Origin: Candidatus Aegiribacteria sp.
GTDB lineage: Bacteria; Fermentibacterota; Fermentibacteria; Fermentibacterales; JCC-6
Direction: 5' to 3'
Assembly (NCBI GenBank): GCA_046498225.1
Contig: JAWOBF010000061.1
Span: forward strand, 3,709-67,708
DNA: 64,000 bases
The notes under the pieces are model-generated. The model was not told the origin of the DNA, did no database searches, and saw only the letters and a list, made by a program, of their open reading frames with translations. Shown one piece after another: positions 15,555-31,697 of this stretch. Positions within the stretch are counted from its first letter, which is position 1; each line of letters starts with the position of its first letter. The translations under genes were made by a program, and so were the position numbers.

Positions 15555-16086
15555 GCTCCTCCAGCTGTATGTCGCCTCCGGTGTAGATGCATATTCCGGA
15601 GGCTATCCTGATGCTCTCGAACGCGATCCTGGCCGGTCCCATCCTGGTGTGCCCGTCCAGGGCCCGCGCAGCGGCGATGGCGTATGGATGACCTGAACCT
15701 ACAGCCACTATTCCATCTTCCGCCTCGACTATCTCGCCGGAGCCGCCTATGAGCAGGGCATGGTCGCGGTCCACCGCGGCCAGCAGTGCTTCCAGCTCCC
15801 TCAGGTACTTGTCGGCCCGCCATTCGCGGGCAAGGTCAACCGCCGCCCTGGGAAGGTTGCCCCTGGCTGTCTCCAGTTTCTCCTCCAGCCTCTCCACCAG
15901 GGCGAAGGCGTCGGCGCCGGTTCCGGAGAATCCCACCAGGACGGTGTCGGAATAGAGCCTTCTTATTTTCCTGGCGGTGCTCTTCAGGACGGTATCCCCC
16001 AGGGTGACCTGGCCGTCCGCCGCCATGGCGGCCTTTCCATCCCTGACTATGCCCACTACGGTGGTCGACCGCAGTTCTGCCGTCAT
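15547..16086 (-). CDS. hslV: ATP-dependent protease subunit HslV
   Basis: STTVVGIVRDGKAAMAADGQVTLGDTVLKSTARKIRRLY. The ATG at 16086 forms an ATGA overlap with the upstream stop. I rejected the upstream 79 codons of the track ORF. Confidence 0.93.
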   Translation of the reverse strand: MTAELRSTTVVGIVRDGKAAMAADGQVTLGDTVLKSTARKIRRLYSDTVLVGFSGTGADAFALVERLEEKLETARGNLPRAAVDLAREWRADKYLRELEALLAAVDRDHALLIGGSGEIVEAEDGIVAVGSGHPYAIAAARALDGHTRMGPARIAFESIRIASGICIYTGGDIQLEELG

Positions 16087-19000
16087 TGGTCGCCCTCCAG
16101 CAGGTTGACCCAGGAATAGTCGCCCATACCCCTGCCGGGGTCGGGTACACCCGCGGCGTAGGCCTCCGGGTCCTCCAGGACCCGAGCCAGTGCGGAGGCC
16201 GACATGACTTCGCTCCGGTAGAGAGCGGCGTACATCATGCCGGGCCTTCCGCCCTTCGCCGCCATCCAGGCCAGGGCCTCCGGCGATACCCTGTTGCTCT
16301 CCGTGCGGAACCATCTTGTCCACGATACGGTCTCCTCGACAGGATCGTTCAGTATCCTCAGGGCCAGGTTTTCCACCACGCTGGCCTCCTGCGGGTCTTC
16401 CATGCTTCGGGAAAGAACGATACCCGAAGCGGCGGCCGATATCAGATGGCTCCGGGAGGAGAGCCTCAACATCTCTTCCATGATCCTGCCCGCTGTGGCC
16501 TGTTCATTCAGGTCCAGCCCGGAGACCGAGGATGGCTCCATGGATTCGAAGAGTATGGAAAGGCCCGTGTCCCGAATATTGATCCTGTATCCCAGCGGAG
16601 AGCTGTTCAGTATGGCGGCAAGGGAGGAATCCGCCATGGCCGCCAGGCCGGCGTAGGCCGGGTCCGCGCCGGGGTCCATCTCCTCCACTATCCTCCAGGC
16701 GCCTATGTAGTCGGAGAACAGGAGAGCGACCTCCACCCGCAGCCAGGCGAAGGCGGGGGAACCGTCGTCCAGGCTGTCGAAGAGCTGCCTGTACTCCAGC
16801 TCCTGCCGGTAGCCCAGGGTATTATCCGTGCCGGTCGCCAGGCTGGAGAGGTTCAGCGCCAGTCCCGCCAGTTCCTGGCTGTCCAGTCTCCTGGCGTTGT
16901 CCAGTGTCCGGTCGGCGATGGCCTGCAGTGTATCCGAGGCGGCAGCGGGACCGTGCATCCCGTCCACCAGTCTGGCGACTATCATGGCCCTGCGGGGAAG
17001 GACTTCGGCCCAGGCGTCGGGAAGGGTGGTGAAAAGCTCCTCCGACCTGTCGAGTACCATCTGGACGCTGTCCGGCCGGCCTCTGTCGATGTAGTGGTAG
17101 GCCAGTCTGTGATAGGCGGAAACGTAGTTCTTCAGCAGCTGCACCGCCTGGTCGCACTTGAATACGGATGGGTCCTCCACCCCGGTGAACCGGTAGTTTT
17201 CCATCAGCTCCCATCCCCTGGAGCCGTTGACGGCGTCCACCACCGGCCTGTCGGTCACTCGGAAAGCGATTCCCTCCATCATGTGGTAGGGTTCGAGGTA
17301 CTGTCTGCTCTCCGTCGCCACGGTTCCGGCGAAGTATATCTCCCTGCCGTGGATCGGCCTGTTCTTTATCATGTTCAGGAGCACCAGGTCCTGCATGCTC
17401 AGCACTCCCTGGCTGGACAGACCTTCGATTGGAATGGCCACGGCCATGGAGCCGTGGGTTACGGCCCACGGCCAGGGCTGGTCGAAGGTGGTCCTGAGTA
17501 TCTCGCCGTCCACCGGCGAATACTCGGGCATTCCGTACCTCTCCACGTGGAAGTGATGGGGGCCCCAGATATACACAGGCCGAAGCCGGTGTACAAGTCC
17601 GTGGTCGTCGAAATCCAGGAGCAGAGAATCCCTGTCCACCAGCTGCTGCACGTACCAGTTGGTGTTCATAAGGCTGAGGTTGCTGACAATCACGTCCCTG
17701 CGGACCCCCAGCACACCCTGGGCGAACCACAGGGGGAAGGTGTCGTTGTCGCCGTTGGTTATCAGAACGGCGTTCTCCGGGACGCTCTCCAGCAGATTTA
17801 TGCCGTAGTCGTGGGCGAAGTAGGAATTCGACCGGTCGCACCTGTGATGGTTCGCGGTGAACATCAGAAGAGGAATGGCAAGAGTGGCCCACGCCAGCCT
17901 GGACTTCTCGGACAGGAAGTCCCTGAAGACGGATACCAGGCCTATTCCGGAGAATATGGCGAACAGGGCGAAGGAGGCTCCGAAGAAGTAGTCCCTCTCC
18001 CTCACCTCCCCGGCCGGGGTTCCCTCCAGGCCTGTCTTGAAATTCAGTATGAAGAATATGAACAGTATGGATGACATCAGGAACAGAAAACCGAGGTATA
18101 GAAGCAGTTTCGGCCTCCTCATTCCCAGCACCACCAGTCCGTATATCGCCCCGAACAGGAGAATTATGCGCATCAGCATGGCCGCCGCCGGCCCGCCGGT
18201 GTCGCCCAGCAGCCGGTCCCATCCGCTGTCCACCCTTCCGGGCTGCCATGAGAGGTACTTCAGGTAGAGCCTGAGCTGGTGGTGGAAGGGCCCCTTCCGG
18301 TCCAGAATGGACGTCCTTCCGTACTGGTCCCTGGTGAACGCCTTCTCGAAGTTCTCCCATCTGCTTGAGTCGGTCTCGTTCACCTCCGGGTCCTGAACCG
18401 CCCGAATGGGCATGTACAGGTGAATGCTGAATGCCAGCACAACGAGGCCGAGTATGGTCAGTATGAACCAGGAGCGCTTCCAGATGTCGGTCTTCTTCCT
18501 GAAGGCGTAAATAATGTACATCAGGAGTATGGGGGGGCCGGTGACCAGCGGTACGCTGCCGTGGTTGGCAACCGCGAGTATTATCAGGTAGGAAATCAGA
18601 AGAAGGTACCTGGCCTCCCCCCAGCCGCCGTGGTCCTTCCACCCCTTCCTGTGCTTCCTCTCCGCGTACCTCTCTATCCAGCAGTCGAAGGACCACATTA
18701 TTATGAAAGTCAGCAGGAGGGCTGTGGCGTAGGTCTCCGTGGCGTTGCTGTTGCGCCATATTGAGTAGCTGAAGGTCGCTGTCAGTCCCGACAGCACCGA
18801 CATCGGCCTGTACCAGGCGGAAGTGAAGCCCATCCTCCTTCCCCACCGCTGCACGAGACGGACCAGGAGGCCGATGGTGGCGGCCCCGGCAAGGGCGCAC
18901 ATCAGGTTGACCCTGCTGGCCACTCCCGGCAGGAAGGAGAACACGATGGTGCTGAAGCGGCCGAGAAGAACGAACAGCGGGACGCCGGGCGGGTGCGGGA

Positions 19001-19160
19001 CCCCCGCGGTCCAGGATGCGGTTATGTACTCACCGCTGTCCCAGAAGCTGACGCTGGGCGCCAGTGTCAGAACGTAAGTGAGGAGCGCTGCGAGGGCCAC
19101 TGCGACCGCTATGGCCCTGTCGGTTCGAACACTTCTTGATTCAAGCTTCTTGTCAGTCAC
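16083..19160 (-). CDS. DUF2723 (TMEM260-like) large polytopic membrane protein, putative GT-C glycosyltransferase, with a long C-terminal soluble region
   Basis: The N-terminus LTLAPSVSFWDSGEYITASWTAGVPHPPGVPLFVLLGR is the DUF2723 signature. Many TM segments occupy the first ~480 aa, followed by ~540 aa of soluble sequence. GTG start. Confidence 0.8.
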   Translation of the reverse strand: MTDKKLESRSVRTDRAIAVAVALAALLTYVLTLAPSVSFWDSGEYITASWTAGVPHPPGVPLFVLLGRFSTIVFSFLPGVASRVNLMCALAGAATIGLLVRLVQRWGRRMGFTSAWYRPMSVLSGLTATFSYSIWRNSNATETYATALLLTFIIMWSFDCWIERYAERKHRKGWKDHGGWGEARYLLLISYLIILAVANHGSVPLVTGPPILLMYIIYAFRKKTDIWKRSWFILTILGLVVLAFSIHLYMPIRAVQDPEVNETDSSRWENFEKAFTRDQYGRTSILDRKGPFHHQLRLYLKYLSWQPGRVDSGWDRLLGDTGGPAAAMLMRIILLFGAIYGLVVLGMRRPKLLLYLGFLFLMSSILFIFFILNFKTGLEGTPAGEVRERDYFFGASFALFAIFSGIGLVSVFRDFLSEKSRLAWATLAIPLLMFTANHHRCDRSNSYFAHDYGINLLESVPENAVLITNGDNDTFPLWFAQGVLGVRRDVIVSNLSLMNTNWYVQQLVDRDSLLLDFDDHGLVHRLRPVYIWGPHHFHVERYGMPEYSPVDGEILRTTFDQPWPWAVTHGSMAVAIPIEGLSSQGVLSMQDLVLLNMIKNRPIHGREIYFAGTVATESRQYLEPYHMMEGIAFRVTDRPVVDAVNGSRGWELMENYRFTGVEDPSVFKCDQAVQLLKNYVSAYHRLAYHYIDRGRPDSVQMVLDRSEELFTTLPDAWAEVLPRRAMIVARLVDGMHGPAAASDTLQAIADRTLDNARRLDSQELAGLALNLSSLATGTDNTLGYRQELEYRQLFDSLDDGSPAFAWLRVEVALLFSDYIGAWRIVEEMDPGADPAYAGLAAMADSSLAAILNSSPLGYRINIRDTGLSILFESMEPSSVSGLDLNEQATAGRIMEEMLRLSSRSHLISAAASGIVLSRSMEDPQEASVVENLALRILNDPVEETVSWTRWFRTESNRVSPEALAWMAAKGGRPGMMYAALYRSEVMSASALARVLEDPEAYAAGVPDPGRGMGDYSWVNLLEGDQ

Positions 19161-20059
19161 TCTTTCCCCCTGGGATGTGCTTTGTTGTAGGCCTCTCTAA
19201 GCCGTTCCATCGTGAGATGAGTATATATCTGTGTAGTGGAGAGACTGCTGTGGCCCAGCATGTCCTGTACCGCCCTGAGGTCGGCCCCGTTGTCAAGAAG
19301 ATGGGTCGCGAAACTGTGCCGGAACGTATGCGGTGTGGCACCCGCGGCCCTGGCAGCCTTTCTCACTCCGCATGCAACAATACGCCGGATATCCCTGGGG
19401 TCAAGCTTGCGTCCTCTGACACTGACGAAAACAGTCCCGGGATCGGCTGCCCCCTCGGGGACCAGTTCCACCCTTCTCTCCATCCATCTGTCCAGTGAAC
19501 GGCAGGTTGGTTCCGGCAGGGGAACTATTCTCTCCCTGTTGCCCTTTCCGGTGACCGAAACCTGCCTTTCGGCCGTATCCAGCCCGGAAAGGGTCACCGA
19601 AACCGTTTCCGCCGCCCTCAGCCCGGCGCCGTAGAGTATCTCCACGATGGCCCGGTTCCGTATGCCCAGTACGGTGGAGAGATCGTAGCTTTCCATCACC
19701 TGTCTCACCTCCGCCACGCTCAGGAAACCCGGCAGACGCCTGGAACTCTTCGGCATCGCTACCAGCCTGGCGGGGTTGCGGCCGGCCCGCCGGGTCTCCA
19801 GCAGCCAGTTGCCGAAGGTCCGCAGGGTCGAGAGTTCGCGGGAGAGGGAGGCGGAATCCATGCCCCTTGAGGTCTCCCTTCTGAGGAAACCCCTTATCTC
19901 GTTGACGGTGAACCCTGAAAGGAGATCTTCCGAATGCTGGTATTCAAGAAACCTGCGCAGGTCGGCCCTGTACGCCCGAATGGTGTTCTCCGAGAATTTC
20001 CTTCCGTGCCTGAGGTCGCTGCAGAAATCCTCTATCAGTTCTCGATCTTCTTCTTGCAT
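19157..20059 (-). CDS. xerC: tyrosine recombinase XerC/XerD
   Basis: SAM-like N-terminal domain (NTIRAYRADLRRFLEY) and catalytic region HTFRHSFATHLLDNGADLRAVQDMLGHSSLSTTQIYTH. I chose the ATG at 20059; the upstream part of the track ORF lies inside topA. Confidence 0.9.
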   Translation of the reverse strand: MQEEDRELIEDFCSDLRHGRKFSENTIRAYRADLRRFLEYQHSEDLLSGFTVNEIRGFLRRETSRGMDSASLSRELSTLRTFGNWLLETRRAGRNPARLVAMPKSSRRLPGFLSVAEVRQVMESYDLSTVLGIRNRAIVEILYGAGLRAAETVSVTLSGLDTAERQVSVTGKGNRERIVPLPEPTCRSLDRWMERRVELVPEGAADPGTVFVSVRGRKLDPRDIRRIVACGVRKAARAAGATPHTFRHSFATHLLDNGADLRAVQDMLGHSSLSTTQIYTHLTMERLREAYNKAHPRGKE

Positions 20060-22239
20060 CCGGGACACCAGATACCTTTCCTCTTCTCCTCCAGCACCGG
20101 AAAACCGCACCGCGGGCAGGTCCTGGCCACAGGTCTGTTCCATAGAGCGTACCTGCATGAGGGGTACCTGCTGCAGCCGTAGAATGTCCTTCCCTTTCTG
20201 GTCCTCTTTTCCACCAGCTCTCCTCCGCACCCCTCCTCCGGACAGGGAACACCGGTGGGGACCGACTCCGTATGCTTGCATCCGGGATGGTTCTCGCAGC
20301 CGAGGTATCGGCCGTACCTGCCGGACTTGACCAGCAGCTTTCCTCCGCAGAGAGGGCAGGTCCTTCCGGATAACTCCGTCTCCCCCTCCTCCTCCAGCGG
20401 GGTCGAGTACCTGCATTTCGGAAATGCCGTACATGCTTTGAACTTTCCGTACTTTCCCCAGCGTATGACCATGGGAGCGCCGCATTCGGGGCACTGCTCC
20501 CCCGTTTCCTCGAAGAGCTGCTCCTTTAAGCTGTCAGTGCTCCTCATCGCATCCTTCAGCGATGATTCCAGAGGAACGCTGAGCTGCTCCAGGACACCCG
20601 AGTAGGTTTCATCCCCTCCGGCTATGGAATCCAGAAGGTCCTCCATCCTGGCGGTGAATCCAACCTCGAATATGTGGGGGAACATCTTCACCAGTATCCT
20701 CACGGTGGTGGTCCCCAGTTCGGTTGGTTTCAGGAACCTTCCCTCCTTTTCCACGTAATCTCTCTGCCTTATGGTCTTTATGGTGCTGACATAGGTGGAG
20801 GGCCTTCCTATGCCCGCCTTCTTCATCTCGGATACCAGCCTCGCCTCCGTGAACCTTGCGGGCGGGGCCGTGAACTTCTGCTCCTTCCGGAGGTCCACCA
20901 GGGACACTCCCCCCTTCCTGAGTTCGGGAAGGCTGTCCGATGTCCTGACGAAGGCCGGATCGACCCTGGAGAACCCGGGCTGGATGAGTTCCTCCCCGGA
21001 GGCGGTCATCTCGAGTTCCCCCGCGGTGACGGTAACTGCGGTGGTCCGGACCCTCGCGTCCCGAACCTGCGTCGCTACGAAACGATTCCATATCAGCCGG
21101 TAGAGGGACAGCTGGGCGGAAGACAGATGTGGTTTGAGGCTGTCCGGCGTCAGATCGACATTCACCGGCCTGATGGCCTCGTGGGCATCCTGGGAGCCCT
21201 TGGAACTCCTGTACCTCCTTACCCCGGGAGCGAGCATTTCCTCCCCGTATTCCCTCTTCACGAACTCCCTGCAGCTGTTGAGGCTGTCCGGGCTCATCCG
21301 GACCGAATCCGTACGCATGTACGTTATCAGGCCCGTCCTCTCCCCTTTGCCGATGGAGATACCCTCGTAAAGCTGCTGGGCCAGGGACATGGTCCTTCCC
21401 GGTGAATACGAGAGCCTGCTGGAAGCGGCCTGCTGAAGGGTGCTGGTGATGAAGGGAGGGGGCGGTTTCACCGATCTTTCCCTGGACCTTATGGAGGAGA
21501 TCTCCCATTTATCGGACAGTTCATTCATCCTGAGGGAAACGGCTTCGGCCTCCTTCTCGCTGCAGGGGGGTTTTCCCGGTTTGCAGCAGGGTTTTCCGTC
21601 CATCCGGGTCAGGGTCGCGGCGAACTCCCCCTTTCCCTGGCGCACAAGGGCTTCCATGACCCAGTATTCCACGGGGACGAAGGCTGTTATGTCGTCCTCC
21701 CGTTCCTGGATCATTCTCAGGGCCACCGACTGAACCCTTCCGGCGCTCTTTCCCTTTCCCATTATCCTCTGCAGCCAGGACGAGACCTTGTAGCCCACAA
21801 GCCTGTCCATAACCCTTCTTGCCTGCTGGGCGTCGACCAGCTGCATGTCTATCATGCTGGGTTTCTTAAGAGAACGGAGGACCGTCTCCCTGGTTATTGC
21901 GTTGAACCGGAGCCTCTTGAAAGTGACCCCCTTCCTCTCCAGTATCTGTGAGAGGTGCCAGCAGATAGCCTCTCCCTCCCTGTCGGGGTCCGCGGCGAGG
22001 TATATCCTGGAGAAGTTGCGTGACTTCTTCTTGAGGTCTTCCACAGTTTTGCGTTTCTCCGGCAGGATGGTATACGAAGGTTTGAAGCCGTTTTCCTCGT
22101 CCACGCCCATGTAGTTCCGCGGCAGGTCCCTGACGTGGCCGTTCGAGGCTGTTATCTCGTATTCGTCACCCAGGTAGCCCCTGAGGCTGCGGGCCTTGGC
22201 CGGTGACTCCAGTATTACCAGATACTCTTTCTTGCTCAT
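20035..22239 (-). CDS. topA: DNA topoisomerase I
   Basis: Toprim N-terminus (LVILESPAKARSL), GLITYMRTDS around the catalytic Tyr, and four C-terminal CxxC...CxxC zinc ribbons. Confidence 0.95.
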   Translation of the reverse strand: MSKKEYLVILESPAKARSLRGYLGDEYEITASNGHVRDLPRNYMGVDEENGFKPSYTILPEKRKTVEDLKKKSRNFSRIYLAADPDREGEAICWHLSQILERKGVTFKRLRFNAITRETVLRSLKKPSMIDMQLVDAQQARRVMDRLVGYKVSSWLQRIMGKGKSAGRVQSVALRMIQEREDDITAFVPVEYWVMEALVRQGKGEFAATLTRMDGKPCCKPGKPPCSEKEAEAVSLRMNELSDKWEISSIRSRERSVKPPPPFITSTLQQAASSRLSYSPGRTMSLAQQLYEGISIGKGERTGLITYMRTDSVRMSPDSLNSCREFVKREYGEEMLAPGVRRYRSSKGSQDAHEAIRPVNVDLTPDSLKPHLSSAQLSLYRLIWNRFVATQVRDARVRTTAVTVTAGELEMTASGEELIQPGFSRVDPAFVRTSDSLPELRKGGVSLVDLRKEQKFTAPPARFTEARLVSEMKKAGIGRPSTYVSTIKTIRQRDYVEKEGRFLKPTELGTTTVRILVKMFPHIFEVGFTARMEDLLDSIAGGDETYSGVLEQLSVPLESSLKDAMRSTDSLKEQLFEETGEQCPECGAPMVIRWGKYGKFKACTAFPKCRYSTPLEEEGETELSGRTCPLCGGKLLVKSGRYGRYLGCENHPGCKHTESVPTGVPCPEEGCGGELVEKRTRKGRTFYGCSRYPSCRYALWNRPVARTCPRCGFPVLEEKRKGIWCPGCKKKIEN

Positions 22240-22305
22240 TGCTCTCTCATGTCTGGTGATCGGTGGGAATTCGCCCGACCGGGACTCTCCCGGCGGGGAG
22301 TGTGA

Positions 22306-23874
22306 TCAGTCTGTATCCGTCATCCACTGGAAGACGCTGCCGGTAACCAGTTCCGACGTTTCGGGGATCACCGCCTGTCTCCTCTGGAGGTAGTAGGGGC
22401 TGGGGGATGTGGCCAGTACCCTGAAACTGTCGGAGATGAAGGAGAACATGTTAGGTGCGTAGTACTGGTTCTCGCGGTAGTAGAGAACCATCTGGTCGAC
22501 TATCGTGGAATCCAGCAGCAGGCCTATTCCGCCGATCAGGGCGGCCCTCTTCTCCGCCGGCTCGGGATGGAGTATGGACATCACCAGTATATCGTACCCG
22601 TCCTCCGTTCGAATGAGGGAAAATCTCTCCATCTCTATGGAATGGAATGCCGAGAGCTGTCCCAGCGGTTCTGCGAGGAACTGAAGGGATTCGGAAAGAA
22701 CCTCCACTTCCCGGACCGGGGAATCCGTGAGGCCCCTGGGAACCTGGTAGTCATCCGTGGCCAGTGAATCCGGCAGCGTGAGGCTCCTCAGTGATATGAA
22801 AACGGGGGGAGGCAACGAATCCGCAACCAGAGAGTCGGAGGCGGTCTCCCCGGTCCCGGTCGTATCGGGGCCGGCTATCCCGCTCTCCTGTCCCTCACCG
22901 GCGGAAGACGTATCCGGGAGCGCCGCCGGCACTGCACCGGCATCCTGTTCTGACCCGCCGAAAATATCAAAGGGATCAAGGAGCAGGAAGACTGCCAGCA
23001 GGGCGACCAGGACTGTTATGGCAATCAGCGTCGGAGATAGACCGGGGAATCGTCCGGAGCTGCCGGACTTCCTTCTCGCCGGAGCTGAAGGCCGCTCCCT
23101 GGCGGGAATCTCCCGAGCCGTCTCCTCCGGTGGTTTTCTCTCGGGCACCGAATCAAGTGGACGGTCCACCGTTCTGCCCAGGGAGGCGCACTTTTCGCAG
23201 ACGTGTTCCTTCCTGTCGTAGCATCCGGCGCAGGTGAGTTCTCCGCATGTTGTGCAGGGAACCAGTTTCTCCCCGGTAGTGGGTGTCCTTCCGCAGATGT
23301 GGCATCTCTGCACGGTAAGGACCTCCTCCGCGGCTGAAGTGACCACGAGGGGTTCGTCATCATCGGAAGCGGAAGCCCCCGAAACGAAATCGTCGTCCAT
23401 GAGCGAACTCGGAGAATCAACTATGTCGCCCAGGCCGTCATTCCGGCCTTCCCCGTCCGGCAGGACGGTTCGCTCCTCCCTCCCCTCCGCCGGGTACTCG
23501 TCATCCGTTCCAGAATATATTCCCTGCTGCAGGGAATCCTCCTCCTCCTCCTCCTCCTCCGGCTCTTCCTCCTCAGGCGGCGCGGGCGGAGGCGTTGTGT
23601 CCGCCACCGGGGCTTTTTTCCCGGTTTCTTCCGCGGGTGTCTTGTAGTACTTGGGCAGAAGGTCGACGAAAGGGTACATCCTGTCCTGAAGTATTCTGCC
23701 CTGCTCCATCTCGACGTTCTCTCTGAGAATGACCGGGGAATTCTCCACCTTTTCGGTGGCCTCCTCCGTACTCATGCCAAGCTCGCTGACCAGCAGGTCG
23801 ATGACCTTCTGCTTCTCGTCATCCCTGCTGAGCCTGACCAGGAGGAGGTCAACCATTCTGCCTTCTTCGTTCAA
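22306..23874 (-). CDS. novel multidomain membrane protein: L7/L12 C-terminal-domain-like N-terminus, acidic linker, 4x CxxC zinc-ribbon region, one TM helix, extracytoplasmic C-terminal domain
   Basis: Residues ~7-75 (VDLLLVRLSRDDEKQKVIDLLVSELGMSTEEATEKVENSPVILRENVEMEQGRILQDRM) align by eye to the L7/L12 CTD ([49 protein letters not shown]). Also present: PEEEEPEEEEEEED, CHIC..CTTC..CAGC..CEKC, and TM helix LSPTLIAITVLVALLAVFLLL. It starts 1 nt after the mglA stop. Confidence 0.6.
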   Translation of the reverse strand: MNEEGRMVDLLLVRLSRDDEKQKVIDLLVSELGMSTEEATEKVENSPVILRENVEMEQGRILQDRMYPFVDLLPKYYKTPAEETGKKAPVADTTPPPAPPEEEEPEEEEEEEDSLQQGIYSGTDDEYPAEGREERTVLPDGEGRNDGLGDIVDSPSSLMDDDFVSGASASDDDEPLVVTSAAEEVLTVQRCHICGRTPTTGEKLVPCTTCGELTCAGCYDRKEHVCEKCASLGRTVDRPLDSVPERKPPEETAREIPARERPSAPARRKSGSSGRFPGLSPTLIAITVLVALLAVFLLLDPFDIFGGSEQDAGAVPAALPDTSSAGEGQESGIAGPDTTGTGETASDSLVADSLPPPVFISLRSLTLPDSLATDDYQVPRGLTDSPVREVEVLSESLQFLAEPLGQLSAFHSIEMERFSLIRTEDGYDILVMSILHPEPAEKRAALIGGIGLLLDSTIVDQMVLYYRENQYYAPNMFSFISDSFRVLATSPSPYYLQRRQAVIPETSELVTGSVFQWMTDTD

Positions 23875-23875
23875 T

Positions 23876-24484
23876 TCAGCCTCGTTTCTCGTTCAGTGCA
23901 AGAGAAAACTGCCTGTGCAGACGTCTCATGACTATTCTGCTGGCTTTCCTGAGCGTCTCGAAGACTCCGGTGCCGTCAATCGCCACTGATTCGATGCACG
24001 GTACCCGCTCCAGCCCGAGCTTCTGTCTTATGGTATCCGTGGGCAGGATGTCGGGAAGGTCTCTCTTGTTTGCCTGAAGAACCAGGCTCAGGCCCTTGCG
24101 CTTCGTGTCCCTGAGGTTCTCCTTCAGGTCCCGCAGACTGGCGATGTTGGCTTCCATCCTGGCCCTCTGGGAATCGGCCACGAAGATGATACCGTCAACA
24201 CCCTGCAGTATCAGCTGCCTGCTGTCTGTGTACATGGCCTGTCCGGGTACGCTGTAGAGATGCAGCCTTACCTTGAAACCATATATGGTGCCTGTATTTA
24301 TGGGCAGGAAATCGAAGAAAAGGGTTCGCTCGTTGCCGGTGGCCAGGGATATGAGCTTGCCCCTGTCACTGGACGGGATCTGACTGTGTATGAACTTGAC
24401 ATTGGTGGTCTTGCCCGAAAGTCCCGGACCGGCATAGACAAGCTTGCAATCAATCTCCCTGGAACTGTAGCTAACTGTGGCCAT
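23876..24484 (-). CDS. mglA: MglA-family Ras-like small GTPase (paralog 2, closest to Myxococcus MglA)
   Basis: MATVSYSSREIDCKLVYAGPGLSGKTTN...RTLFFDFLP...LYSVPGQ...GIIFVADSQ...ANKRD is near-colinear with the MglA sequence as I recall it ([28 protein letters not shown]...). Confidence 0.9.
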   Translation of the reverse strand: MATVSYSSREIDCKLVYAGPGLSGKTTNVKFIHSQIPSSDRGKLISLATGNERTLFFDFLPINTGTIYGFKVRLHLYSVPGQAMYTDSRQLILQGVDGIIFVADSQRARMEANIASLRDLKENLRDTKRKGLSLVLQANKRDLPDILPTDTIRQKLGLERVPCIESVAIDGTGVFETLRKASRIVMRRLHRQFSLALNEKRG

Positions 24485-24671
24485 TCGTATCTTCCCCGTT
24501 TCCAGAATCCTCGTCTTCGTTATTCGAGATTCCCTCTTTCATACCTTTTCTGAACATGTGCAGAGCCTGACCCACGGAACGGGCCAGGTCCGGGATCCTC
24601 TTGGCTCCAAAAAGAAGAAGAAGAGCTACGATTATTAATATTATCTCACCGGTGCCTGGTCGAAACATCAT
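24471..24671 (-). CDS. tatA: twin-arginine translocase subunit TatA/E
   Basis: The 66-aa protein has GEIILIIVALLLLFGAKRIPDLARSVGQALHMFRKGMKE, i.e. a TM helix, the FG hinge and an amphipathic helix. Confidence 0.85.
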   Translation of the reverse strand: MMFRPGTGEIILIIVALLLLFGAKRIPDLARSVGQALHMFRKGMKEGISNNEDEDSGNGEDTNGHS

Positions 24672-24698
24672 TATTACTCCCGATCCGTTGGGGCCTGC

Positions 24699-24971
24699 TC
24701 AGAACCAGCGGTAAAGATAACCCACGAACATCAGCCCGGCAAAACTCATCAGGTTCAGCTTGAAAGCTATCTCCTCCAGGGCGAACCTGAACACTATGAG
24801 ATCGAACCCGAATGGTCCGACCGAAAACTCCAGCGCTCCCCCGAAAAAGGACCGGAGGGCGGTGGACGATTCGGGAAGCACGGCCGCGATCGACTCACCG
24901 AAAACGGTACCGGTCATCATTCCGAAGAAGGATATCGCAATCCAGAAACCGTTCGAGCGATTATGAAGCAC
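24699..24971 (-). CDS. small membrane protein, DUF4321-like
   Basis: 90 aa with two hydrophobic ends flanking a Gly/Phe-rich core (FGGALEFSVGPFGFDLIVFRFAL). It ends YLYRWF. The pattern matches my recollection of DUF4321. Confidence 0.5.
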   Translation of the reverse strand: MLHNRSNGFWIAISFFGMMTGTVFGESIAAVLPESSTALRSFFGGALEFSVGPFGFDLIVFRFALEEIAFKLNLMSFAGLMFVGYLYRWF

Positions 24972-24992
24972 AATACCTCCAGCATCCGTAAT

Positions 24993-25532
24993 CTATTCCG
25001 GCGCACAGACTGAATCAACCCCTGCGGCCGCCGATGACAGGAATCCCTTTCTCAGCAGTACTGCGGCAACAATACCTGTAACAGCCCCCGAGAGGAAACC
25101 CCATAGGGACACCGGAAGCAGAAGGGAGGATACCGGCAGTCCCGGAATCAGCGCGGAAGCCGCCAGAAGCTGAACCCACAGGCTGGATAGACTTCCGGCA
25201 ACCGACATCCCGGGTATGGAGAAGAACTTTCTCGCGGTTCCCATCACCGCCGCCGAGGCCGCCCCTCCGGCCATGGACAGAAGGTATGCCGGAGTAGCCA
25301 GGGTTCCCATGATCAGTGCGGCTCCTGTGGACCTTAGGATATTGACCCGCAGACCGGTGAGTAGTCCGTACCTGACCACGGCGGCTACTGTGACGACGTT
25401 TGCCAGCCCGGGCTTGATGAACGGGAGCGGTCTCGGGACCATGTTCTCGATGACCGCGGCGCCCGTGGCCAGTATTACCAGCAGCACTTCTATCCCGGCC
25501 CGTCCCCGCGCCGTATCAGTTCCTTCCCGCAT
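24993..25532 (-). CDS. Gx transporter family membrane protein (Hpre_diP_synt_I-like)
   Basis: IENMVPRPLPFIKPGLANVVTVAAVVRYG matches the xPxPxxKLGLANIxT motif of this family. About 5 TM helices. Confidence 0.6.
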   Translation of the reverse strand: MREGTDTARGRAGIEVLLVILATGAAVIENMVPRPLPFIKPGLANVVTVAAVVRYGLLTGLRVNILRSTGAALIMGTLATPAYLLSMAGGAASAAVMGTARKFFSIPGMSVAGSLSSLWVQLLAASALIPGLPVSSLLLPVSLWGFLSGAVTGIVAAVLLRKGFLSSAAAGVDSVCAPE

Positions 25533-26595
25533 CGGCGGCCTCCAGCAGTATCTTCTCCACCCGCAGGAACAGGTCCCCGGAGTCGAACTCCTCCCTGGCT
25601 CTGCGCAGCGCTCCCTTCGAGAGTTCGCTCCGGACGGCCGGGTCGCTCATCTTCCTGACCGCCTCCGCCAGCGCCAGCGGGTCTCCCGGCGGTACCACGA
25701 GCCCGCTCACTCCATGCATGTTCACCCATGGCACGCCGGTGGGAAGGGCGGTGCTGATGACAGGCACCCCGCAGGCCATCGCCTCCGTCTGGACCATGCC
25801 GAAGGCTTCGCTGCGCATGGTGGATGGAAGAACCAGGAACCCCGCGTTCCGGTAGAGCTCCAGCAGTTTCCTGTCGTCCGGGTCTCTCTCCATGACGATG
25901 TTCAGCCGGTCCCGCCGCGCAACTCTGGAAACGAGTCCTTCCAGAGGACCCCCGCCTGCCATTATCAGCCTTTTCTCCGGGAACTCCCTCCAGGCCCGCA
26001 GGAGTACCTCTATCCCCTTGTAGCTCCGGAATCTCCCGACGAACAGGGCGTAGCTTCCGTCCGTCTCTCCGGCGGCCGGGGTGAACAGGGACGTATCCGT
26101 TCCGATGGGAACCACTTCGGTGTTGTCCAGGCCGGAGAGGTAGGGGGAAGTGTCCCTGTAGACGGGAGAGGTTGCCAGGACCCTTTCCGCGCCCCGGAGA
26201 AATCTTCTGAGGAATGGGCCGTACAGCGGCATGAGGAATGCCTGCCTGACTATATCGCTGTGATAGGTTACGATGTAGGGCGTGCGGCTCACGGACAGGA
26301 GCCGGGCCATGACTGCTGAAGGAAGGGGAACATGGAACTGCACCGCGTCGGCTTCGATGGAGTCCAGCATCCTTCCCAGCCCCGGTGATATGGGGTTGGA
26401 CAGCACTCGGGCGACGCAGGGGTACTCCGCCACCCTGAAACCGGAGACAGTCCTTTCCCGCCCCTCTCTTCCCGCCACCAGCACCGTTACCCGGTGGCCC
26501 CTCTGCGACAGGAATGCCGAGAGGTCGTGAATGTACCTCTCTATCCCCCCCGTGAGGAAGGGGTGGACGTCCTTGTACACCTGCAGCACTCTCAA
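25516..26595 (-). CDS. glycosyltransferase family 4
   Basis: N-terminus MRVLQVYKDVHPFLTGGIERYIHDLS, and the C-terminal E-x7-E region LPSTMRSEAFGMVQTEAMACGVPVISTALPTG. TTG start in a TTGA overlap. Confidence 0.85.
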   Translation of the reverse strand: MRVLQVYKDVHPFLTGGIERYIHDLSAFLSQRGHRVTVLVAGREGRERTVSGFRVAEYPCVARVLSNPISPGLGRMLDSIEADAVQFHVPLPSAVMARLLSVSRTPYIVTYHSDIVRQAFLMPLYGPFLRRFLRGAERVLATSPVYRDTSPYLSGLDNTEVVPIGTDTSLFTPAAGETDGSYALFVGRFRSYKGIEVLLRAWREFPEKRLIMAGGGPLEGLVSRVARRDRLNIVMERDPDDRKLLELYRNAGFLVLPSTMRSEAFGMVQTEAMACGVPVISTALPTGVPWVNMHGVSGLVVPPGDPLALAEAVRKMSDPAVRSELSKGALRRAREEFDSGDLFLRVEKILLEAADAGRN

Positions 26596-27746
26596 ACGGA
26601 GAACTCCCCGTACACCCCGAGGACCTTCTCTGTCATTCCTTCTATGGTGTGAAGGGCGGCGAAACCTTTGAGCTTCCCCCTGTCCGTCGCGGTGTCCAGC
26701 GCTTCCAGAACGGCCATGGAGATGGACCGGGGATCGAACCCGGAAGCCACAGTCGAAATACCCGAGTAGATCTCGGTCAGAGCCGCGGCGGGAGTCACAA
26801 CCGAAGGTACACCCGCCGACGCGGCCTCCAGCGGCGGCAGGCCGAAACCCTCGTACAGGGAGGGGTAGACCATGAGGGAAGCGCCGCTGACACAGCTCTT
26901 CAGAAGTTTCTCGGACAGACTGCCGGTATGCAGCACTCCCGCGGTTCCCATGAGGTCCCTTCTAAGGTCCGGCGGTCCCCAGCCCCACCTTCCCGCTATA
27001 ACCAGGGTCAGCCCGGGGTGCTCCCGCCTTACTTCCGGCCATGCTTTCAGTAGAGCGCTCAGGTTCTTTCTGGGCTCGACCGTGCCTGCGAAGACGATGT
27101 AGCCGTTACGAATGTCGAAGGCGTCCCTGAAGATCTCCGGATCTTCCAAGAACGGCTCCGTGCACAGATATATCCTTCGAATCCTGTCCCTTTCCACCTT
27201 CAGGAGAGTCGCCGCCTCTTCTCCGGTGAAATCGCTGTCCACCATCACAGCGTCCGCCTTCAGGGCAACCCTTTTGAAGTGCAGTCTGTAGTAGATCGAT
27301 CTGAAGGGGGGGAACCAGGAGGGATGGCGGCAGAAAGCCAGATCATGCAGCGTGACCACCAGCGGGACCCCGGGAACCCCTCTTCCGGAGAATGCGGGCA
27401 GATGGACAAGGCCGGGCCGATGCCTCCTCCCTGTTGCCGGAATGAGCAGGTTCTCCCATATGATCTTTACCGCGCCGGACATAGGTTTCATGTCCAGTGC
27501 CCTTCGGGGGGTGGTGATAACTCCTCCCACCGCCGCGAGGACACCGGTATCTATTCCGCTCAGTCCGAACAGCAGCCTTTCGAGGTAAACACCGGTACCG
27601 CCCCTGTTGCCAAGGGCGTCAGCGTATATCAGTACCGGTCCTTTGCTCCCTCCGGGGCTAGCGGATCTCAACTTGGCACGAACTGCCGGCTGTGAGCCTG
27701 GCGGCTGAGCCGGTGACCTTGACGTCTTCGCCTGTAATGGAATCAC
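26592..27746 (-). CDS. glycosyltransferase family 4
   Basis: YPSLYEGFGLPPLEAASAGVPSVVT. The start is uncertain: the track start at 27746 overlaps the upstream gene by 89 nt, and an in-frame TTG at 27671 would cut this to 14 nt. Confidence 0.8.
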   Translation of the reverse strand: MIPLQAKTSRSPAQPPGSQPAVRAKLRSASPGGSKGPVLIYADALGNRGGTGVYLERLLFGLSGIDTGVLAAVGGVITTPRRALDMKPMSGAVKIIWENLLIPATGRRHRPGLVHLPAFSGRGVPGVPLVVTLHDLAFCRHPSWFPPFRSIYYRLHFKRVALKADAVMVDSDFTGEEAATLLKVERDRIRRIYLCTEPFLEDPEIFRDAFDIRNGYIVFAGTVEPRKNLSALLKAWPEVRREHPGLTLVIAGRWGWGPPDLRRDLMGTAGVLHTGSLSEKLLKSCVSGASLMVYPSLYEGFGLPPLEAASAGVPSVVTPAAALTEIYSGISTVASGFDPRSISMAVLEALDTATDRGKLKGFAALHTIEGMTEKVLGVYGEFSV

Positions 27747-28668
27747 GGACCATGGTTTCCTTTATGGCCGTTCCAGCCCCGAGGATGGAATTCGAGACAA
27801 TGGAGCCCTCTATTCTGCATCCCCCGGAAATGGAGACGAAGGGACCGATGATCGAGGATGCTATCTCCGCGTCCTCCTCCACGCTCACGGGAGGGATGAC
27901 CAGCGAGCCTTCAATGCCGCCCGGGTCCCTGCCCCTTCCCAGTTCCAGCAGCCGGCGGTTGGTGGTGAGAATGGTCTCCGGTTTGCCGCAGTCGTACCAT
28001 CCGTCCACCTGGAATGCGCCGAACCTGTGTCCTTCGTCCAGCATCATCTGCATGGCGTCGGTGAGCTGGTACTCGCCCCTTGTCTTCCTGCCGCTTCGTA
28101 CGAGCCTCTCCGTTGCCTCCATGAGAAGGCTGCCGGACCGGAAGCCGTATATTCCGACTATGGCCAGGTCGCTGACGAACTCCGAAGGCTTCTCCACCAG
28201 CTTCATTACTCTGTCACCCTGCATGACCACCACGCCGAACCTCCTGGGGTCCTCCACCCTTCTGACGGCTATCATATTGCGGTCTTCACTTATGGCCTCT
28301 TTAAGGTCCGCGCTGAAAAGGGTGTCTCCCAGCACCACCAGTGTCGGGCGGTCATCCGCCATGGGAGAAGCGAGGCTGATGGCGGAGGCAAGTCCGTCCA
28401 TCTTCTCCTGGAAGGCGAAATCGACCTCTATGTCAGGGTAGTTCTTCCGGGTCCAGTCCACTATCTCATCCCCCAGGTAACCTACGATCAGAGTAATGTG
28501 ATCCACCCCGGAGTCGACCAGGCCGTCGATTATGTGTCCCAGCATGGTGTTCCCCGCGAGTCGAATGAGGACCTTGGGGACGGACCATGTGAGAGGTCTC
28601 ATTCTGGTGCCCTTTCCCGCCACGGGGATTATCGCGTGCATATCAGACGTCACCATCCTTCCTGTCAC
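27658..28668 (-). CDS. sugar-phosphate nucleotidyltransferase with a C-terminal left-handed beta-helix
   Basis: MHAIIPVAGKGTRMRPLTWSVPKVLIRLAG (GxGTRxxPxT motif) plus C-terminal hexapeptide-like repeats. The start may be the ATG at 28641 (MHAIIP). Confidence 0.85.
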   Translation of the reverse strand: MTGRMVTSDMHAIIPVAGKGTRMRPLTWSVPKVLIRLAGNTMLGHIIDGLVDSGVDHITLIVGYLGDEIVDWTRKNYPDIEVDFAFQEKMDGLASAISLASPMADDRPTLVVLGDTLFSADLKEAISEDRNMIAVRRVEDPRRFGVVVMQGDRVMKLVEKPSEFVSDLAIVGIYGFRSGSLLMEATERLVRSGRKTRGEYQLTDAMQMMLDEGHRFGAFQVDGWYDCGKPETILTTNRRLLELGRGRDPGGIEGSLVIPPVSVEEDAEIASSIIGPFVSISGGCRIEGSIVSNSILGAGTAIKETMVRDSITGEDVKVTGSAARLTAGSSCQVEIR

Positions 28669-30421
28669 GGTGTATCTCGTCCAGTATTATCTGCGGATAC
28701 CTTGAGGCGACGTAATGAAGTACGAACCTCCTTATCTCATCACCGGAACCCATGGAGAGGGCGGTGGCGGCGATTTCCTCCGCTTCCTTCATCTCGATGA
28801 CCCTTATCATCTCCTTGACGTCCGGTATCAGCGTGATGGGGACGCTGAACTCGTTGAGACCGAAACCGAGAAGAAGGGGAACGGCCAGGGGGTCGCTGGC
28901 CATCTGGCCGCAGATGCCCACCCATTTTTCAGCTTCCCTGCATTTTTCGGCCACCATCGATATCTGACGGATGACCGCCGGATGGAAAGAATCGAAGAGC
29001 TCGGAGACGTAGGGGCTGCCCCTGTCCACCGCCAGGGTATACTGGGTGAGGTCATTGGAGCCTATGGAGAAAAAATCGCTGTGGGGGATGAGCAGGTCCA
29101 CAGCCAGTGCTGCCGCCGGGGTTTCCACCATTATTCCAAGGGGGGGGATATCGCCCCTCTTCACCCCTTCCCGGTCGAGCCTGGCCGCTATCTCCTTCAG
29201 CATGGACCTGACCCTGATTATCTGGCTCTGGTCCGTGATCATGGGTATCATTATTCTGCAGTTGCCGAACCTGGCCGCCCTGAGAAGGGCCCGCAGCTGG
29301 GGGGTGAACTTCTCCGGCCTGTCAAGACATATCCTGATTGCCCTCCACCCGAGGAACGGGTTCCTCTCCACCGTTGGTATGGTGTCCAGGAACTTGTCCC
29401 CCCCAAGGTCCAGGGTCCTGATTATCACCGGGTCCGGATCCAGGGTTTCGAGAACGTGCGTGTACGCCTCGTAATGAGCTTCCTCGCAGTCCCCCCCACC
29501 CGGCGCCAGCATCCTTATGAACTCGGTCCTGAAGAGTCCCACTCCCCGGCCTCCGAAACGTCCAACCTGGTCCGCCTCCTGGGAGAACTCTATGTTGGCT
29601 GAAAGCTCTATGGGAATGCCGTCCGCGGTGACGGTGGGATTCTCGGCGTTAAGGGCTATCTCGGCCTCCGCGATGTTGTATCTCTGCTTCAGATGGGAAT
29701 AGTACTCCAGTTCCTCATCGTCGGGGTCGAGTATCACGGTGCCGTGGATGCCGTCGATTATCACCGTCTGTCCCGGCAAAGCGCACTCCGCCACGTCCCC
29801 CAGACCGACAACCGCCGGTATGCCCATGCTCCTGGCCAGAATGGAAGTGTGAGATGTGGATCCACCAAGGTCGGTCACGATGCCCAGGAGCTGCCTGCGG
29901 GAGAGTCCCGCCGTCTGGGAGGGGTCGAGGTCACGGGAGACCAGGATGACCGGGTTGTTCAGTGTTTTCAGCGCTTCCCGCTCCGTGCCCATCAGATTGG
30001 CCATGAGCCTTCGGCCCACGTCTCGCACGTCCGCCCCCCTGCTTCTGAGGTAGGGGTCCTTCATGGAGTTGAACCTCTCCAGGACATCGTACAGAACCTG
30101 GCTCACAGCGTACTCCGCGCTTACCTTCTCCCGCCTTATCCTCCGTTCCACGTCGGATATCAACGAGGGGTCGTTGAGAAGGAGTATGTGGACTTCGATA
30201 AGCTGCTGCCCCTCTATCAGGTCGCTTATCCTGTCGGATATGATCTCCAGTTCCTTCCGGGTTTGCTCCAGGGCCTCCCTGAACCTGCCAAGCTCCACCT
30301 CCACCTGGTCCTCGGTCGTGAGCTCCCTCTTCCTTACCCTTATCTCCTCCACGTTCAGGAGGAAGGCGGGTCCTATGGAAACGCCCGGCGAGGCGGGCAC
30401 TCCGGTAAGTCTGATGCTCAA
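28643..30421 (-). CDS. ptsI: phosphoenolpyruvate-protein phosphotransferase (PTS Enzyme I)
   Basis: GGSTSHTSILARSMGIPAVVG contains the active-site His. Also GLFRTEF and FFSIGSNDLTQYTLAVDR. Confidence 0.95.
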   Translation of the reverse strand: MSIRLTGVPASPGVSIGPAFLLNVEEIRVRKRELTTEDQVEVELGRFREALEQTRKELEIISDRISDLIEGQQLIEVHILLLNDPSLISDVERRIRREKVSAEYAVSQVLYDVLERFNSMKDPYLRSRGADVRDVGRRLMANLMGTEREALKTLNNPVILVSRDLDPSQTAGLSRRQLLGIVTDLGGSTSHTSILARSMGIPAVVGLGDVAECALPGQTVIIDGIHGTVILDPDDEELEYYSHLKQRYNIAEAEIALNAENPTVTADGIPIELSANIEFSQEADQVGRFGGRGVGLFRTEFIRMLAPGGGDCEEAHYEAYTHVLETLDPDPVIIRTLDLGGDKFLDTIPTVERNPFLGWRAIRICLDRPEKFTPQLRALLRAARFGNCRIMIPMITDQSQIIRVRSMLKEIAARLDREGVKRGDIPPLGIMVETPAAALAVDLLIPHSDFFSIGSNDLTQYTLAVDRGSPYVSELFDSFHPAVIRQISMVAEKCREAEKWVGICGQMASDPLAVPLLLGFGLNEFSVPITLIPDVKEMIRVIEMKEAEEIAATALSMGSGDEIRRFVLHYVASRYPQIILDEIHRDRKDGDV

Positions 30422-30426
30422 ATCAT

Positions 30427-30693
30427 TCAGTCCTCTCCAAACCCTTCCCGAATGAGCCTGACGACGGAACTGACGGCTTCCTGTTCATCTTCTCCCTCCG
30501 CCTTCACCTCTATGACGCTTCCCCTGCACGCCGCCAGCGTCATCACCCCCATGATGCTCTTCGCGTTGACCGTCACTCCGTCGACCGTGAGGTCGACGGT
30601 GCTGTCGAACAGTGAAGCGGTTTTGACTATCTGGGCCGCGGGCCTGGCGTGAATTCCCAGCGTGTTCACCACTTCGGCTTTCTCAGTTTTCAA
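30427..30693 (-). CDS. ptsH: phosphocarrier protein HPr
   Basis: 88 aa with GIHARPA (His15) and NAKSIMGVMTL (Ser46). Confidence 0.9.
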   Translation of the reverse strand: MKTEKAEVVNTLGIHARPAAQIVKTASLFDSTVDLTVDGVTVNAKSIMGVMTLAACRGSVIEVKAEGEDEQEAVSSVVRLIREGFGED

Positions 30694-30711
30694 TGGAGCC
30701 TCCGGTTCGGT

Positions 30712-31683
30712 TCATTCGCCTCTGGATTCGGTCTCTTTCCTGATTATTCGGTGGATCAGGTCCCTCTCCACCTCTTCCGGCACGTTCCTGCCTTTCTTCA
30801 GCAGCAGGTGGTTCATCACCGCGACCTCCAGGAGGAGGGTGAGGTTCCTGCCGGGAAGCACGGGTATGACCGTCCTGGGTATCGGAAGGTCCAGTATTGT
30901 GCTGAGCTGCTGGACAAGGCCGGTCCTGTCGAAATCCTGGTTCTCCCTGGTCCATTCCTCCAGCTTTACCTCGAGGCTTATCTGCTGCCTGTCCTTTACC
31001 GCCCTTATTCCGTAGAAAGCGGAAACATCCACCAGCCCCAGTCCCCTTATCTCCATATGATGGGCCATGGCGGAGTCGCCGGCCCCGAACAGGGCGCTGC
31101 CTATGCGGTGCACGTGAACGATGTCGTCGGCTATGAGCCTGTGGCCCCTCTCTATGAGACCCAGGACCGTCTCGCTCTTCCCTATCGCGCTCCTTCCGGT
31201 GCACAGCAGGCCGGCCCCGAACACCTCCACCAGTGTTCCGTAGACATCAGTCCTGGGAGCGAAAACGAGATCCAGGAAATTCGTCAGGTCATGTATGAGG
31301 GGAGTGGTGTCCCGGCTGGAACGGAAAAGGGCGGCGCCGTTCTTCTCGGAGAGGTCCACCAGTTCCTTCGGAGGTTCCAGATCCTTGGTGACGATAGAGC
31401 AGTAGACGGGAAGGTCGAAGAGGGAGGTGAGCGATGAACTTCTCTCATGGTCCTGAAGGGACTCGAGGTAGGATATCTCCGTCTCTCCGAATATCTGTAT
31501 GCGCTCGTGCAGGAACTTGTGAAGATAACCGGTGAGAGCCATTCCAGGCCGGCTGATGTCGGGGGATGAAACCGTCCTGTCGTGCCCGGTGTCTCCGTTC
31601 ACCGGGCGAAGATCCAGCTCGTCACCCAGTATATCGAACAGCCTTCCGACGGTGAGTTCCTTCCTGTCGGGGATGTCTCTCAT
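30712..31683 (-). CDS. hprK: HPr kinase/phosphorylase
   Basis: P-loop and signature region GRSAIGKSETVLGLIERGHRLIADD, then HHMEIRGLGLVDV. Confidence 0.92.
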   Translation of the reverse strand: MRDIPDRKELTVGRLFDILGDELDLRPVNGDTGHDRTVSSPDISRPGMALTGYLHKFLHERIQIFGETEISYLESLQDHERSSSLTSLFDLPVYCSIVTKDLEPPKELVDLSEKNGAALFRSSRDTTPLIHDLTNFLDLVFAPRTDVYGTLVEVFGAGLLCTGRSAIGKSETVLGLIERGHRLIADDIVHVHRIGSALFGAGDSAMAHHMEIRGLGLVDVSAFYGIRAVKDRQQISLEVKLEEWTRENQDFDRTGLVQQLSTILDLPIPRTVIPVLPGRNLTLLLEVAVMNHLLLKKGRNVPEEVERDLIHRIIRKETESRGE

Positions 31684-31697
31684 GGGGACCAGCTCCG

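Follow-up and report, generated by a model that had tools for sequence, protein, structure and literature searches.

Pairing of an MglA-type GTPase gene with a bL12-like bitopic membrane protein in Candidatus Aegiribacteria and other Fermentibacterota

Among the Ras-like polarity switches of bacteria, MglA has been studied best, and to our knowledge the wiring of MglAs that lack an adjacent MglB is known in only two cases. A 64,000-nucleotide stretch of a Candidatus Aegiribacteria sp. genome (contig JAWOBF010000061.1, positions 3,709 to 67,708; hereafter the window) raises the question of what such a GTPase may act with. It contains a gene for an MglA ortholog, here named MglA1, followed after one nucleotide by the gene of a 522-residue membrane protein, here named X, with an N-terminal domain resembling the C-terminal domain (CTD) of ribosomal protein bL12 (L7/L12). 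This pairing of mglA with an L12-like membrane protein is real and undescribed. By analogy with GltJ of Myxococcus xanthus, X may be a membrane-anchored partner of MglA1, acting as an effector or an adaptor, a reading to which we give an even chance. The two genes and the one that precedes them are as follows.

23876..24484, minus strand: mglA1, 202-aa group-1-type MglA Ras-like GTPase
22306..23874, minus strand: X, 522-aa bitopic membrane protein with a TTG start
24471..24671, minus strand: tatA (coordinates of the open reading frame), Pfam TatA_B_E E=7.1e-15

The GTPase and its junction with X

In a sequence search of the PDB, MglA1 aligned over residues 1–190 with both Thermus thermophilus MglA (3t12_A, E=8.8e-64), to which it is ~56% identical, and Myxococcus xanthus MglA (5ymx_A, E=9.4e-60). 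The alignment with these two proteins contains the P-loop GPGLSGKTT and the motifs ER53T, LYS78VPGQ82 and NKRD. The hallmark of the MglA family is kept, with Ser78 in place of the DxxG aspartate, followed by PGQ (Gln82), and Arg53 corresponds to the intrinsic arginine. The initial annotation of this DNA, made from the sequence alone, had recognized an MglA ortholog by the motifs GPGLSGKTT, TLFFDFLP, VPGQ and NKRD; every motif is present, the middle two within RTLFFDFLP and SVPGQ, and the strong full-length match to solved MglAs bears out the assignment. Additionally, MglA1 has a C-terminal tail of ~12 residues (HRQF...) that is lacking in the M. xanthus and T. thermophilus MglAs and in MglA2, a second MglA encoded in the window. 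This tail is conserved (23876..23915 and the same position in related loci), reading ...RRLHRQFSLALNEKRG in the window and ...LHRQFEILEGRA in Fermentibacteraceae, and it is a possible candidate for a partner-binding motif.

On the minus strand, the junction of the two genes reads ...AAA CGA GGC TGA a TTG AAC GAA GAA GGC AGA ATG GTT GAC..., with the mglA1 stop codon 1 nt from the TTG start of X; both reading frames, and the 1-nt spacing between them, are as first annotated. At its other end, mglA1 overlaps the coding end of tatA by 14 nt (24471..24484), which results in a tight tatA-mglA1-X string in the window. The corresponding NCBI record (P0001, from a metagenome-assembled genome of Candidatus Aegiribacteria, 100% identical) begins X at an internal ATG, giving a protein of 516 aa. 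The 522-aa reading is preferred because relatives have a start codon in the corresponding position (TGATG or TGA-N-TTG/GTG), adjoining the mglA stop or overlapping it, and often have leucine instead of methionine as residue 7. No promoter-like or terminator-like site was found between tatA, mglA1 and X on the coding strand, and mglA1 and X are probably carried on the same transcript with coupled translation. No tatC was seen in the gene lists covering ±10 kb around the X loci.

Architecture of protein X

Homologs of X were searched among 5.8 billion proteins, with an exhaustive profile search among 1.84 billion representatives and by a locus scan of GTDB. The first search returned 75 homologs, and all of those with an organism name belong to Aegiribacteria, Fermentibacteraceae, Fermentibacteria or Sabulitectum. 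The exhaustive profile search yielded ~16 full-length clusters at 50% identity, and the GTDB scan gave 61 loci with titles naming Fermentibacterota groups or 'uncultured bacterium'. The lowest identity to the window protein is ~28–30%. Neither X nor any of its 75 homologs contains a Pfam domain at the curated cutoff. Judged from these searches, X is a new protein family restricted to Fermentibacterota. Searches of Pfam, NCBIfam and the PDB with the single protein produced sub-threshold matches only, so that family profiles and structure prediction were needed. One homolog, P0077 (610 aa), has a cytosolic linker enlarged by Pro/Glu-rich repeats. Another record, P0095 (121 aa), in which an EGF domain is joined to a piece of the X N-terminal domain, probably reflects chimeric assembly or an error in gene calling.

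The segments of X, all encoded on the minus strand, are the following.

23641..23856, minus strand: residues 7–78, diverged bL12 CTD homolog by sequence and model, cytoplasmic, highly conserved
23359..23640, minus strand: residues 79–172, acidic Pro-rich linker with 31 Asp/Glu in 94 residues, variable in sequence and length (alignment, composition)
23149..23358, minus strand: residues 173–242, eight-Cys zinc finger, CxxC-x12-CxxC-x4-CxxC-x7-CxxC
22972..23040, minus strand: residues ~279–301, sole transmembrane helix, N-in/C-out
22804..22971, minus strand: residues 302–357, variable extracytoplasmic linker rich in Asp, Ser, Thr, Gly and Pro (alignment, composition)
22309..22803, minus strand: residues 358–522, conserved 165-aa extracytoplasmic alpha/beta domain

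Only a single Kyte-Doolittle window of X exceeds 1.6 (peak 2.81), at residues ~279–301. Nine Arg/Lys are found in the 47 residues before this helix and none in the 68 residues after it, which places the N-terminus inside and the C-terminus outside. The initial annotation had described the protein as an L7/L12 CTD-like domain followed by a poly-Glu linker, four CxxC pairs, one transmembrane helix and an outer domain of unknown fold. The poly-Glu linker is present, and the sole hydrophobic segment, together with the charge asymmetry around it, agrees with one transmembrane helix; the remaining elements are considered below.

The AlphaFold model of the N-terminal domain (N-domain), computed from the family alignment, has a predicted local distance difference test score (pLDDT) of 93.6 and a beta-alpha-alpha-beta-alpha-beta topology, with strands at residues 2–6, 42–48 and 64–68 and helices at residues 12–26, 30–38 and 50–60. 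The first nine ranks of a Foldseek search of the PDB are all bL12 CTDs, the best being 1ctf with a template-modelling score (TM) of 0.78/0.82, a root-mean-square deviation of 1.9 Å and 23% identity. ClpS structures appear at rank 10 and below (TM 0.56–0.67, 12–18% identity, E≥0.06), each weaker than all nine bL12 matches. The family profile of X, compared with PDB sequences, gives L7/L12 as its best seven matches, all in the same register (E 0.04–0.25), and alignment with a PF00542-type profile by hhalign gives a probability of 96.9% (E=1.3e-10). Below curated cutoffs, the window X has no PF00542 match at E≤1 and matches NCBIfam TIGR00855 at E=0.064, with 13.7 bits versus a cutoff of 84.4. The by-eye alignment of the initial annotation was thus correct, as AlphaFold, Foldseek, the PDB profile search and the profile-profile comparison agree; HHpred or Foldseek had been proposed there as a check, and both a structural and a profile match to the bL12 CTD were obtained.

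Among the 1.84 billion representatives, the first matches of the X profile outside the family with a readable domain are proteins with tandem Pfam Ribosomal_L12 domains (E 2.7e-9 to 6.6e-4). Four such non-ribosomal proteins, P0096 (1056 aa), P0097 (692 aa), P0107 and P0110, contain two to seven of these domains each, with Pfam E-values down to 1e-125. P0110 has a hydrophobic N-terminus, possibly a signal peptide; if P0110 is secreted, the bL12 CTD fold would not be tied to GTPases. No relevant publication emerged from literature searches on Fermentibacteria with MglA, on PF00542 and on L12 CTD domains outside the ribosome.

On the ribosome, translational GTPases are recruited by the bL12 CTD, which also stimulates them. 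The bL12 residues that we take to contact EF-Tu and EF-G, Val66, Ile69, Lys70 and Arg73, correspond in the HMMER/hhalign register to Gln16, Ile19, Asp20 and Val23 of X, and Lys81, presumably another such residue, corresponds to Glu31. These X positions are variable within the family and acidic, hydrophobic or charge-reversed compared to bL12. In the X family the invariant positions are Asp3, Arg8, Glu14, Arg54, Gln57 and Asp65, together with strands beta1 and beta3, a different set from that of bL12. The equivalent of Lys65 (Lys15) is kept, as are the structural positions equivalent to Ala83, Val87, Pro91 and Leu94 of bL12. The alignment shows neither the bL12 N-terminal dimerization/L10-binding domain nor the hinge in X, whose N-domain starts at residue 7 with no preceding domain. 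From its predicted structure and profile matches, the N-domain is a true but diverged bL12 CTD homolog; by the same comparisons, it is not ribosomal bL12 itself.

The four CxxC pairs of the zinc finger, at residues 191/194, 207/210, 215/218 and 226/229, are all present, and in the alignment their eight cysteines are invariant in 36 homologs; His192 and His224 are also invariant. From this pattern we infer a binuclear cross-brace of the FYVE/RING type. Pfam FYVE was matched by all 17 of the X members scanned (best E=4.8e-4), in each case below the 27.8-bit cutoff, and Prok-RING_2 by 13 of the 17, again below the cutoff. FYVE domains that bind phosphatidylinositol 3-phosphate carry the motifs WxxD, R(R/K)HHCR and RVC. 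These lipid-binding motifs, the basic one included, are absent from X, which reads RCHICGRTPT...HVCEKC. Remote profile matches of the finger are to DZR, Prok-RING_2 and beta-helix proteins, and in remote relatives a Prok-RING_2-type finger sits at the corresponding position and precedes beta-helix domains that are extracytoplasmic. The finger was also considered as a marker of MglA partners elsewhere; this was rejected, since no GTPase gene adjoins that of P0098 (locus L067), the sole remote relative examined.

The outer domain was modelled confidently (pLDDT 93.5, predicted TM-score 0.90), with invariant H-P-E, R, L, Y and P residues. Its fold had been called unknown in the initial annotation, which agrees with Foldseek searches of the PDB and BFVD; no convincing structural neighbour was obtained, and the query-normalized TM is ≤0.43, mostly ~0.3, among the matches listed. 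In both databases the top matches are repeatedly PD-(D/E)XK-like nucleases (Cas4, RecB-like, MGME1 and Rai1), mostly at TM ~0.3. The invariant H-P-E...R...D...E, however, departs from the order of the nuclease motifs, and an extracytoplasmic location also speaks against such an assignment. A Roadblock fold, suggested by the element order alpha-beta-beta-alpha-beta-beta, was discarded, as no Roadblock is found among the Foldseek matches and the domain lies outside the membrane.

Conservation of the pairing and possible roles of X

The synteny set comprised 66 related loci (±10 kb each) and the window, and the order tatA-mglA1-X-topA is retained in nearly all of them. In 57 loci and the window, the mglA1 stop codon lies 7–22 nt before the conserved X motif VDLLLVRL, mostly with TGATG overlaps. 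Retention of this stop/start overlap through deep divergence is typical of co-functioning proteins and favours co-function of MglA1 and X. In two further loci (L031 9897..10003 and L054 1212..1318) the distance is 106 nt; ~85 nt are inserted between the mglA1 stop and X, and a TGATG-type junction is restored immediately in front of X, pointing to the insertion of a small ORF (open reading frame) or to a remnant of one. A neighbourhood survey had been recommended in the initial annotation as a check on the pairing. Its outcome is mixed: in loci with upstream sequence available, X adjoins mglA across the phylum, usually with overlapping stop and start codons, but one lineage keeps X without an adjacent mglA.

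If X is a partner of MglA1, its cytosolic half (the bL12-like domain, the acidic tether and the FYVE/RING-type finger) would bind MglA1, most likely in the GTP form, and the L12-like domain and/or the zinc finger would be the part that binds the GTPase. The single helix would then connect the MglA1 switch to the extracytoplasmic domain. Signalling could run inside-out, with MglA controlling an envelope process, or outside-in. Docking or activation of MglA by the L12-like domain is an unproven proposal made by analogy.

Several observations weigh against a partnership. First, a ~20-kb block is collinear phylum-wide (window ~8000..32000 and L001–L066), unrelated housekeeping genes included. It begins with hpf-hprK-ptsH-ptsI-NTP transferase-GT4-GT4-PF07456 protein-90-aa membrane protein and continues with tatA-mglA1-X-topA-xerC-TMEM260-like-hslV-hslU-mglA2-GT-C/TPR, so that adjacency of mglA1 and X alone is weak evidence. 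Second, one lineage (P0068-type X; L005 and L030) has a full-length X and no adjacent mglA1. In these two independent assemblies (L005 9673..11650, L030 9604..11581), tatA is followed by a ~125-nt gap and then by X, and mglA2 is retained; tatA is thus linked to X at least as consistently as mglA1 is. Third, the remote zinc-finger relative P0098 has no neighbouring GTPase, one such relative having been examined.

These observations are on the side of an explanation by inherited synteny only, in which X works on its own as a bitopic protein of the envelope or of signalling, perhaps connected with the adjacent tatA or with genes of envelope biogenesis, and its L12-like domain and finger bind a target other than MglA. 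The putative secretion of P0110, by which the L12 CTD fold may be a generic module, and the occurrence of zinc-finger relatives in membrane proteins without a nearby GTPase point the same way. We nevertheless consider this explanation doubtful. The TGATG overlap has been kept despite deep divergence; the second MglA paralog repeats the arrangement of a GTPase gene followed by a membrane-protein gene; and the N-domain has diverged furthest in precisely the lineage without mglA1. In L005 and L030, it has 43% identity to the consensus, versus 52–90% elsewhere in the family, and theirs is the only X with an N/C identity ratio below 1, the zinc finger and outer domain being typical. Divergence of the N-domain in the only lineage without mglA1 fits a link between this domain and MglA1, but the argument is based on a single evolutionary event.

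Covariation of evolutionary rates adds weak support for such a link. After background removal, distances of the X N-domain correlate with those of MglA1 (r=0.45) and MglA2 (r=0.65). Of eight housekeeping controls compared with MglA1, six give values between −0.25 and 0.33. The strongest covarying block consists of MglA1, MglA2, the X N-domain and the TMEM260-like protein (r 0.45–0.65). The covariation is non-specific, however, as MglA1 also shows it with the TMEM260-like protein (0.50) and with topA (0.33), and the Mantel permutation p-values are at their floor, inflated by shared phylogeny; both points count against a partnership as well.

The initial annotation had also seen no Roadblock-like ORF in the window and had regarded MglA1 as an orphan, possibly independent of MglB. 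The first statement holds: Pfam scans of the 25 candidate ORFs of the window gave no match to Robl_LC7 (PF03259), and an MglB hidden Markov model (HMM) run on 8,941 six-frame ORFs of the window and the 66 related loci (~1.2 Mb) found no MglB, the best match (E=0.14) being an antisense ORF. The hallmark of an MglA/MglB module, a Roadblock gene within a few genes of mglA, is thus absent at the mglA1 locus. The second statement is weaker than it was put; the lack of a Roadblock gene supports it, but is shown only locally, for the window and ±10 kb of the 66 loci. A profile search with M. xanthus and T. thermophilus MglB was uninformative on Fermentibacterota, since all 8,000 proteins scored passed and those listed are close relatives of the queries, the named ones from Myxococcota or Thermus. 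We take Gly21, Arg53 and Gln82 of MglA to be required for the action of MglB-type GTPase-activating proteins (GAPs). All three residues are retained in both MglA1 and MglA2, so MglA1 could still be a substrate of an MglB encoded elsewhere. In a published survey, 390 of 449 MglAs are coupled to a Roadblock gene within four genes and 59 are orphans (PMC4316618).

Recruitment of a bL12-derived domain to dock or regulate a Ras-like GTPase, fully or partly replacing MglB in Fermentibacterota, appears rather improbable to us. The stricter proposal, in which the bL12 CTD-like domain is a dedicated GAP-like, GTPase-stimulating module for MglA1 that functionally replaces MglB in the phylum, is quite unlikely. 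It would accommodate the genuine bL12 CTD homology of the domain, the action of bL12 on translational GTPases, the lack of a Roadblock ORF in the window and related loci, and the relaxed N-domain where mglA1 is absent. However, the presumed EF-Tu/EF-G contacts (Val66, Ile69, Lys70, Arg73 and Lys81 of bL12) are variable or charge-reversed in X, and MglA lacks equivalents of their targets, the G' domain of EF-G and helix D of EF-Tu. Moreover, MglA1 keeps the three residues of a possible MglB substrate, the Roadblock absence covers the window and ±10 kb of related loci only, and the analogous protein GltJ binds MglA and recruits MglB and is not itself a GAP (PMC11135422).

A role for the N-domain independent of MglA, as a ribosome-related tether of a translational GTPase or of ribosomes to the membrane or as a ClpS-like adaptor, is very unlikely: bL12 is matched best in both structure and profile, ClpS more weakly (TM ~0.62 at 12% identity), and the Lys65 equivalent (Lys15), Ala83 and Pro91 are conserved, but the basic factor-binding patch is not, the bL12 dimerization/L10-binding domain and hinge are missing, the X family invariants differ from those of bL12, and the ClpS matches are clearly weaker than the bL12 matches.

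The MglA2 pair and comparison with known systems

A second mglA gene, mglA2, lies ~10 kb from mglA1; neither it nor its pairing with a membrane protein was mentioned in the initial annotation.

13594..14175, minus strand: mglA2, 193-aa MglA paralog, 53% identical to MglA1, catalytic motifs intact
11323..13566, minus strand: 747-aa polytopic membrane protein, directly downstream of mglA2

The 747-aa protein has a C-terminal Pfam TPR_14 match (E=2.6e-5) and a weak match to Dpy19 (GT-C, E=0.042). The mglA2 gene and a neighbour of this type are present in every related locus long enough to show the pair, and in relatives the gene of the 747-aa protein overlaps mglA2 by 17–23 nt. All of its homologs with an organism name are from Fermentibacterota; a pairing of this protein with GTPases in other phyla was considered and ruled out, as the protein is specific to Fermentibacterota. 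A homolog of TMEM260-like O-mannosyltransferases is encoded between the mglA1-X and mglA2 pairs. With its GT-C/TPR membrane protein, the mglA2 pair suggests that MglA paralogs in Fermentibacterota may generally be wired to envelope proteins.

The mglA1-X pair is compact, consisting of a 202-aa GTPase and a ~250-aa cytosolic fragment of X, and is conserved across an uncultured phylum. X reuses a ribosomal domain that normally handles translational GTPases. If X binds MglA1, the bL12 CTD fold can serve Ras-like GTPases, and MglA switches would be coupled directly to envelope proteins outside Myxococcota, with two such modules in Fermentibacterota. Should the domain be a bL12-derived regulator, it would represent a new class of small-GTPase regulator, beside the parallel pair of MglA2 and a GT-C glycosyltransferase. 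If there is no binding, X is still a new, well-defined family and provides evidence for non-ribosomal bL12 CTD domains.

Compared to ribosomal bL12, the N-domain of X has the same beta-alpha-alpha-beta-alpha-beta fold and a detectable profile homology to its CTD (PF00542), but X combines the domain with a zinc finger and a membrane anchor, and the basic factor-binding residues are replaced. The finger has the eight Zn ligands and the cross-brace-compatible spacing of Prok-RING_1, _2 and _4 and FYVE fingers.

Orphan MglAs are already documented, among them SofG of M. xanthus and the MglA of Bdellovibrio bacteriovorus (PMC4316618, PMC3983030). The latter acts via a non-Roadblock partner, the TPR protein Bd2492, and the loss of mglB in Bdellovibrio was argued from bioinformatic analyses (PMC3983030). 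The mglA1 locus resembles these cases in having a group-1-type MglA without an adjacent mglB. In contrast, the putative partner of MglA1 is a phylum-specific membrane protein encoded directly downstream, and two paralogs are present.

The closest analog in overall layout is GltJ (AgmX) of the M. xanthus Agl-Glt gliding machinery, which consists of a cytosolic zinc ribbon (ZnR)-linker-GYF region, one transmembrane helix and, in the periplasm, a flexible region and a TonB-C domain, and which binds MglA-GTP and recruits MglB (PMC11135422). Like X, GltJ combines a cytosolic zinc domain, a small adaptor domain and a linker with a single transmembrane helix, a flexible outer linker and a folded C-terminal domain. 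The two proteins are not homologous: a four-Cys zinc ribbon, GYF and TonB-C in GltJ stand against the bL12 CTD-like domain, eight-Cys finger and unmatched outer domain of X, which has no Pfam match to GYF or TonB-C at E≤1. Binding of MglA has been demonstrated for GltJ, via its linker, whereas binding by X is a prediction, and GltJ operates together with MglB. The mglA1-X pair would thus be a new variant on the theme of a small GTPase with a membrane-anchored partner.

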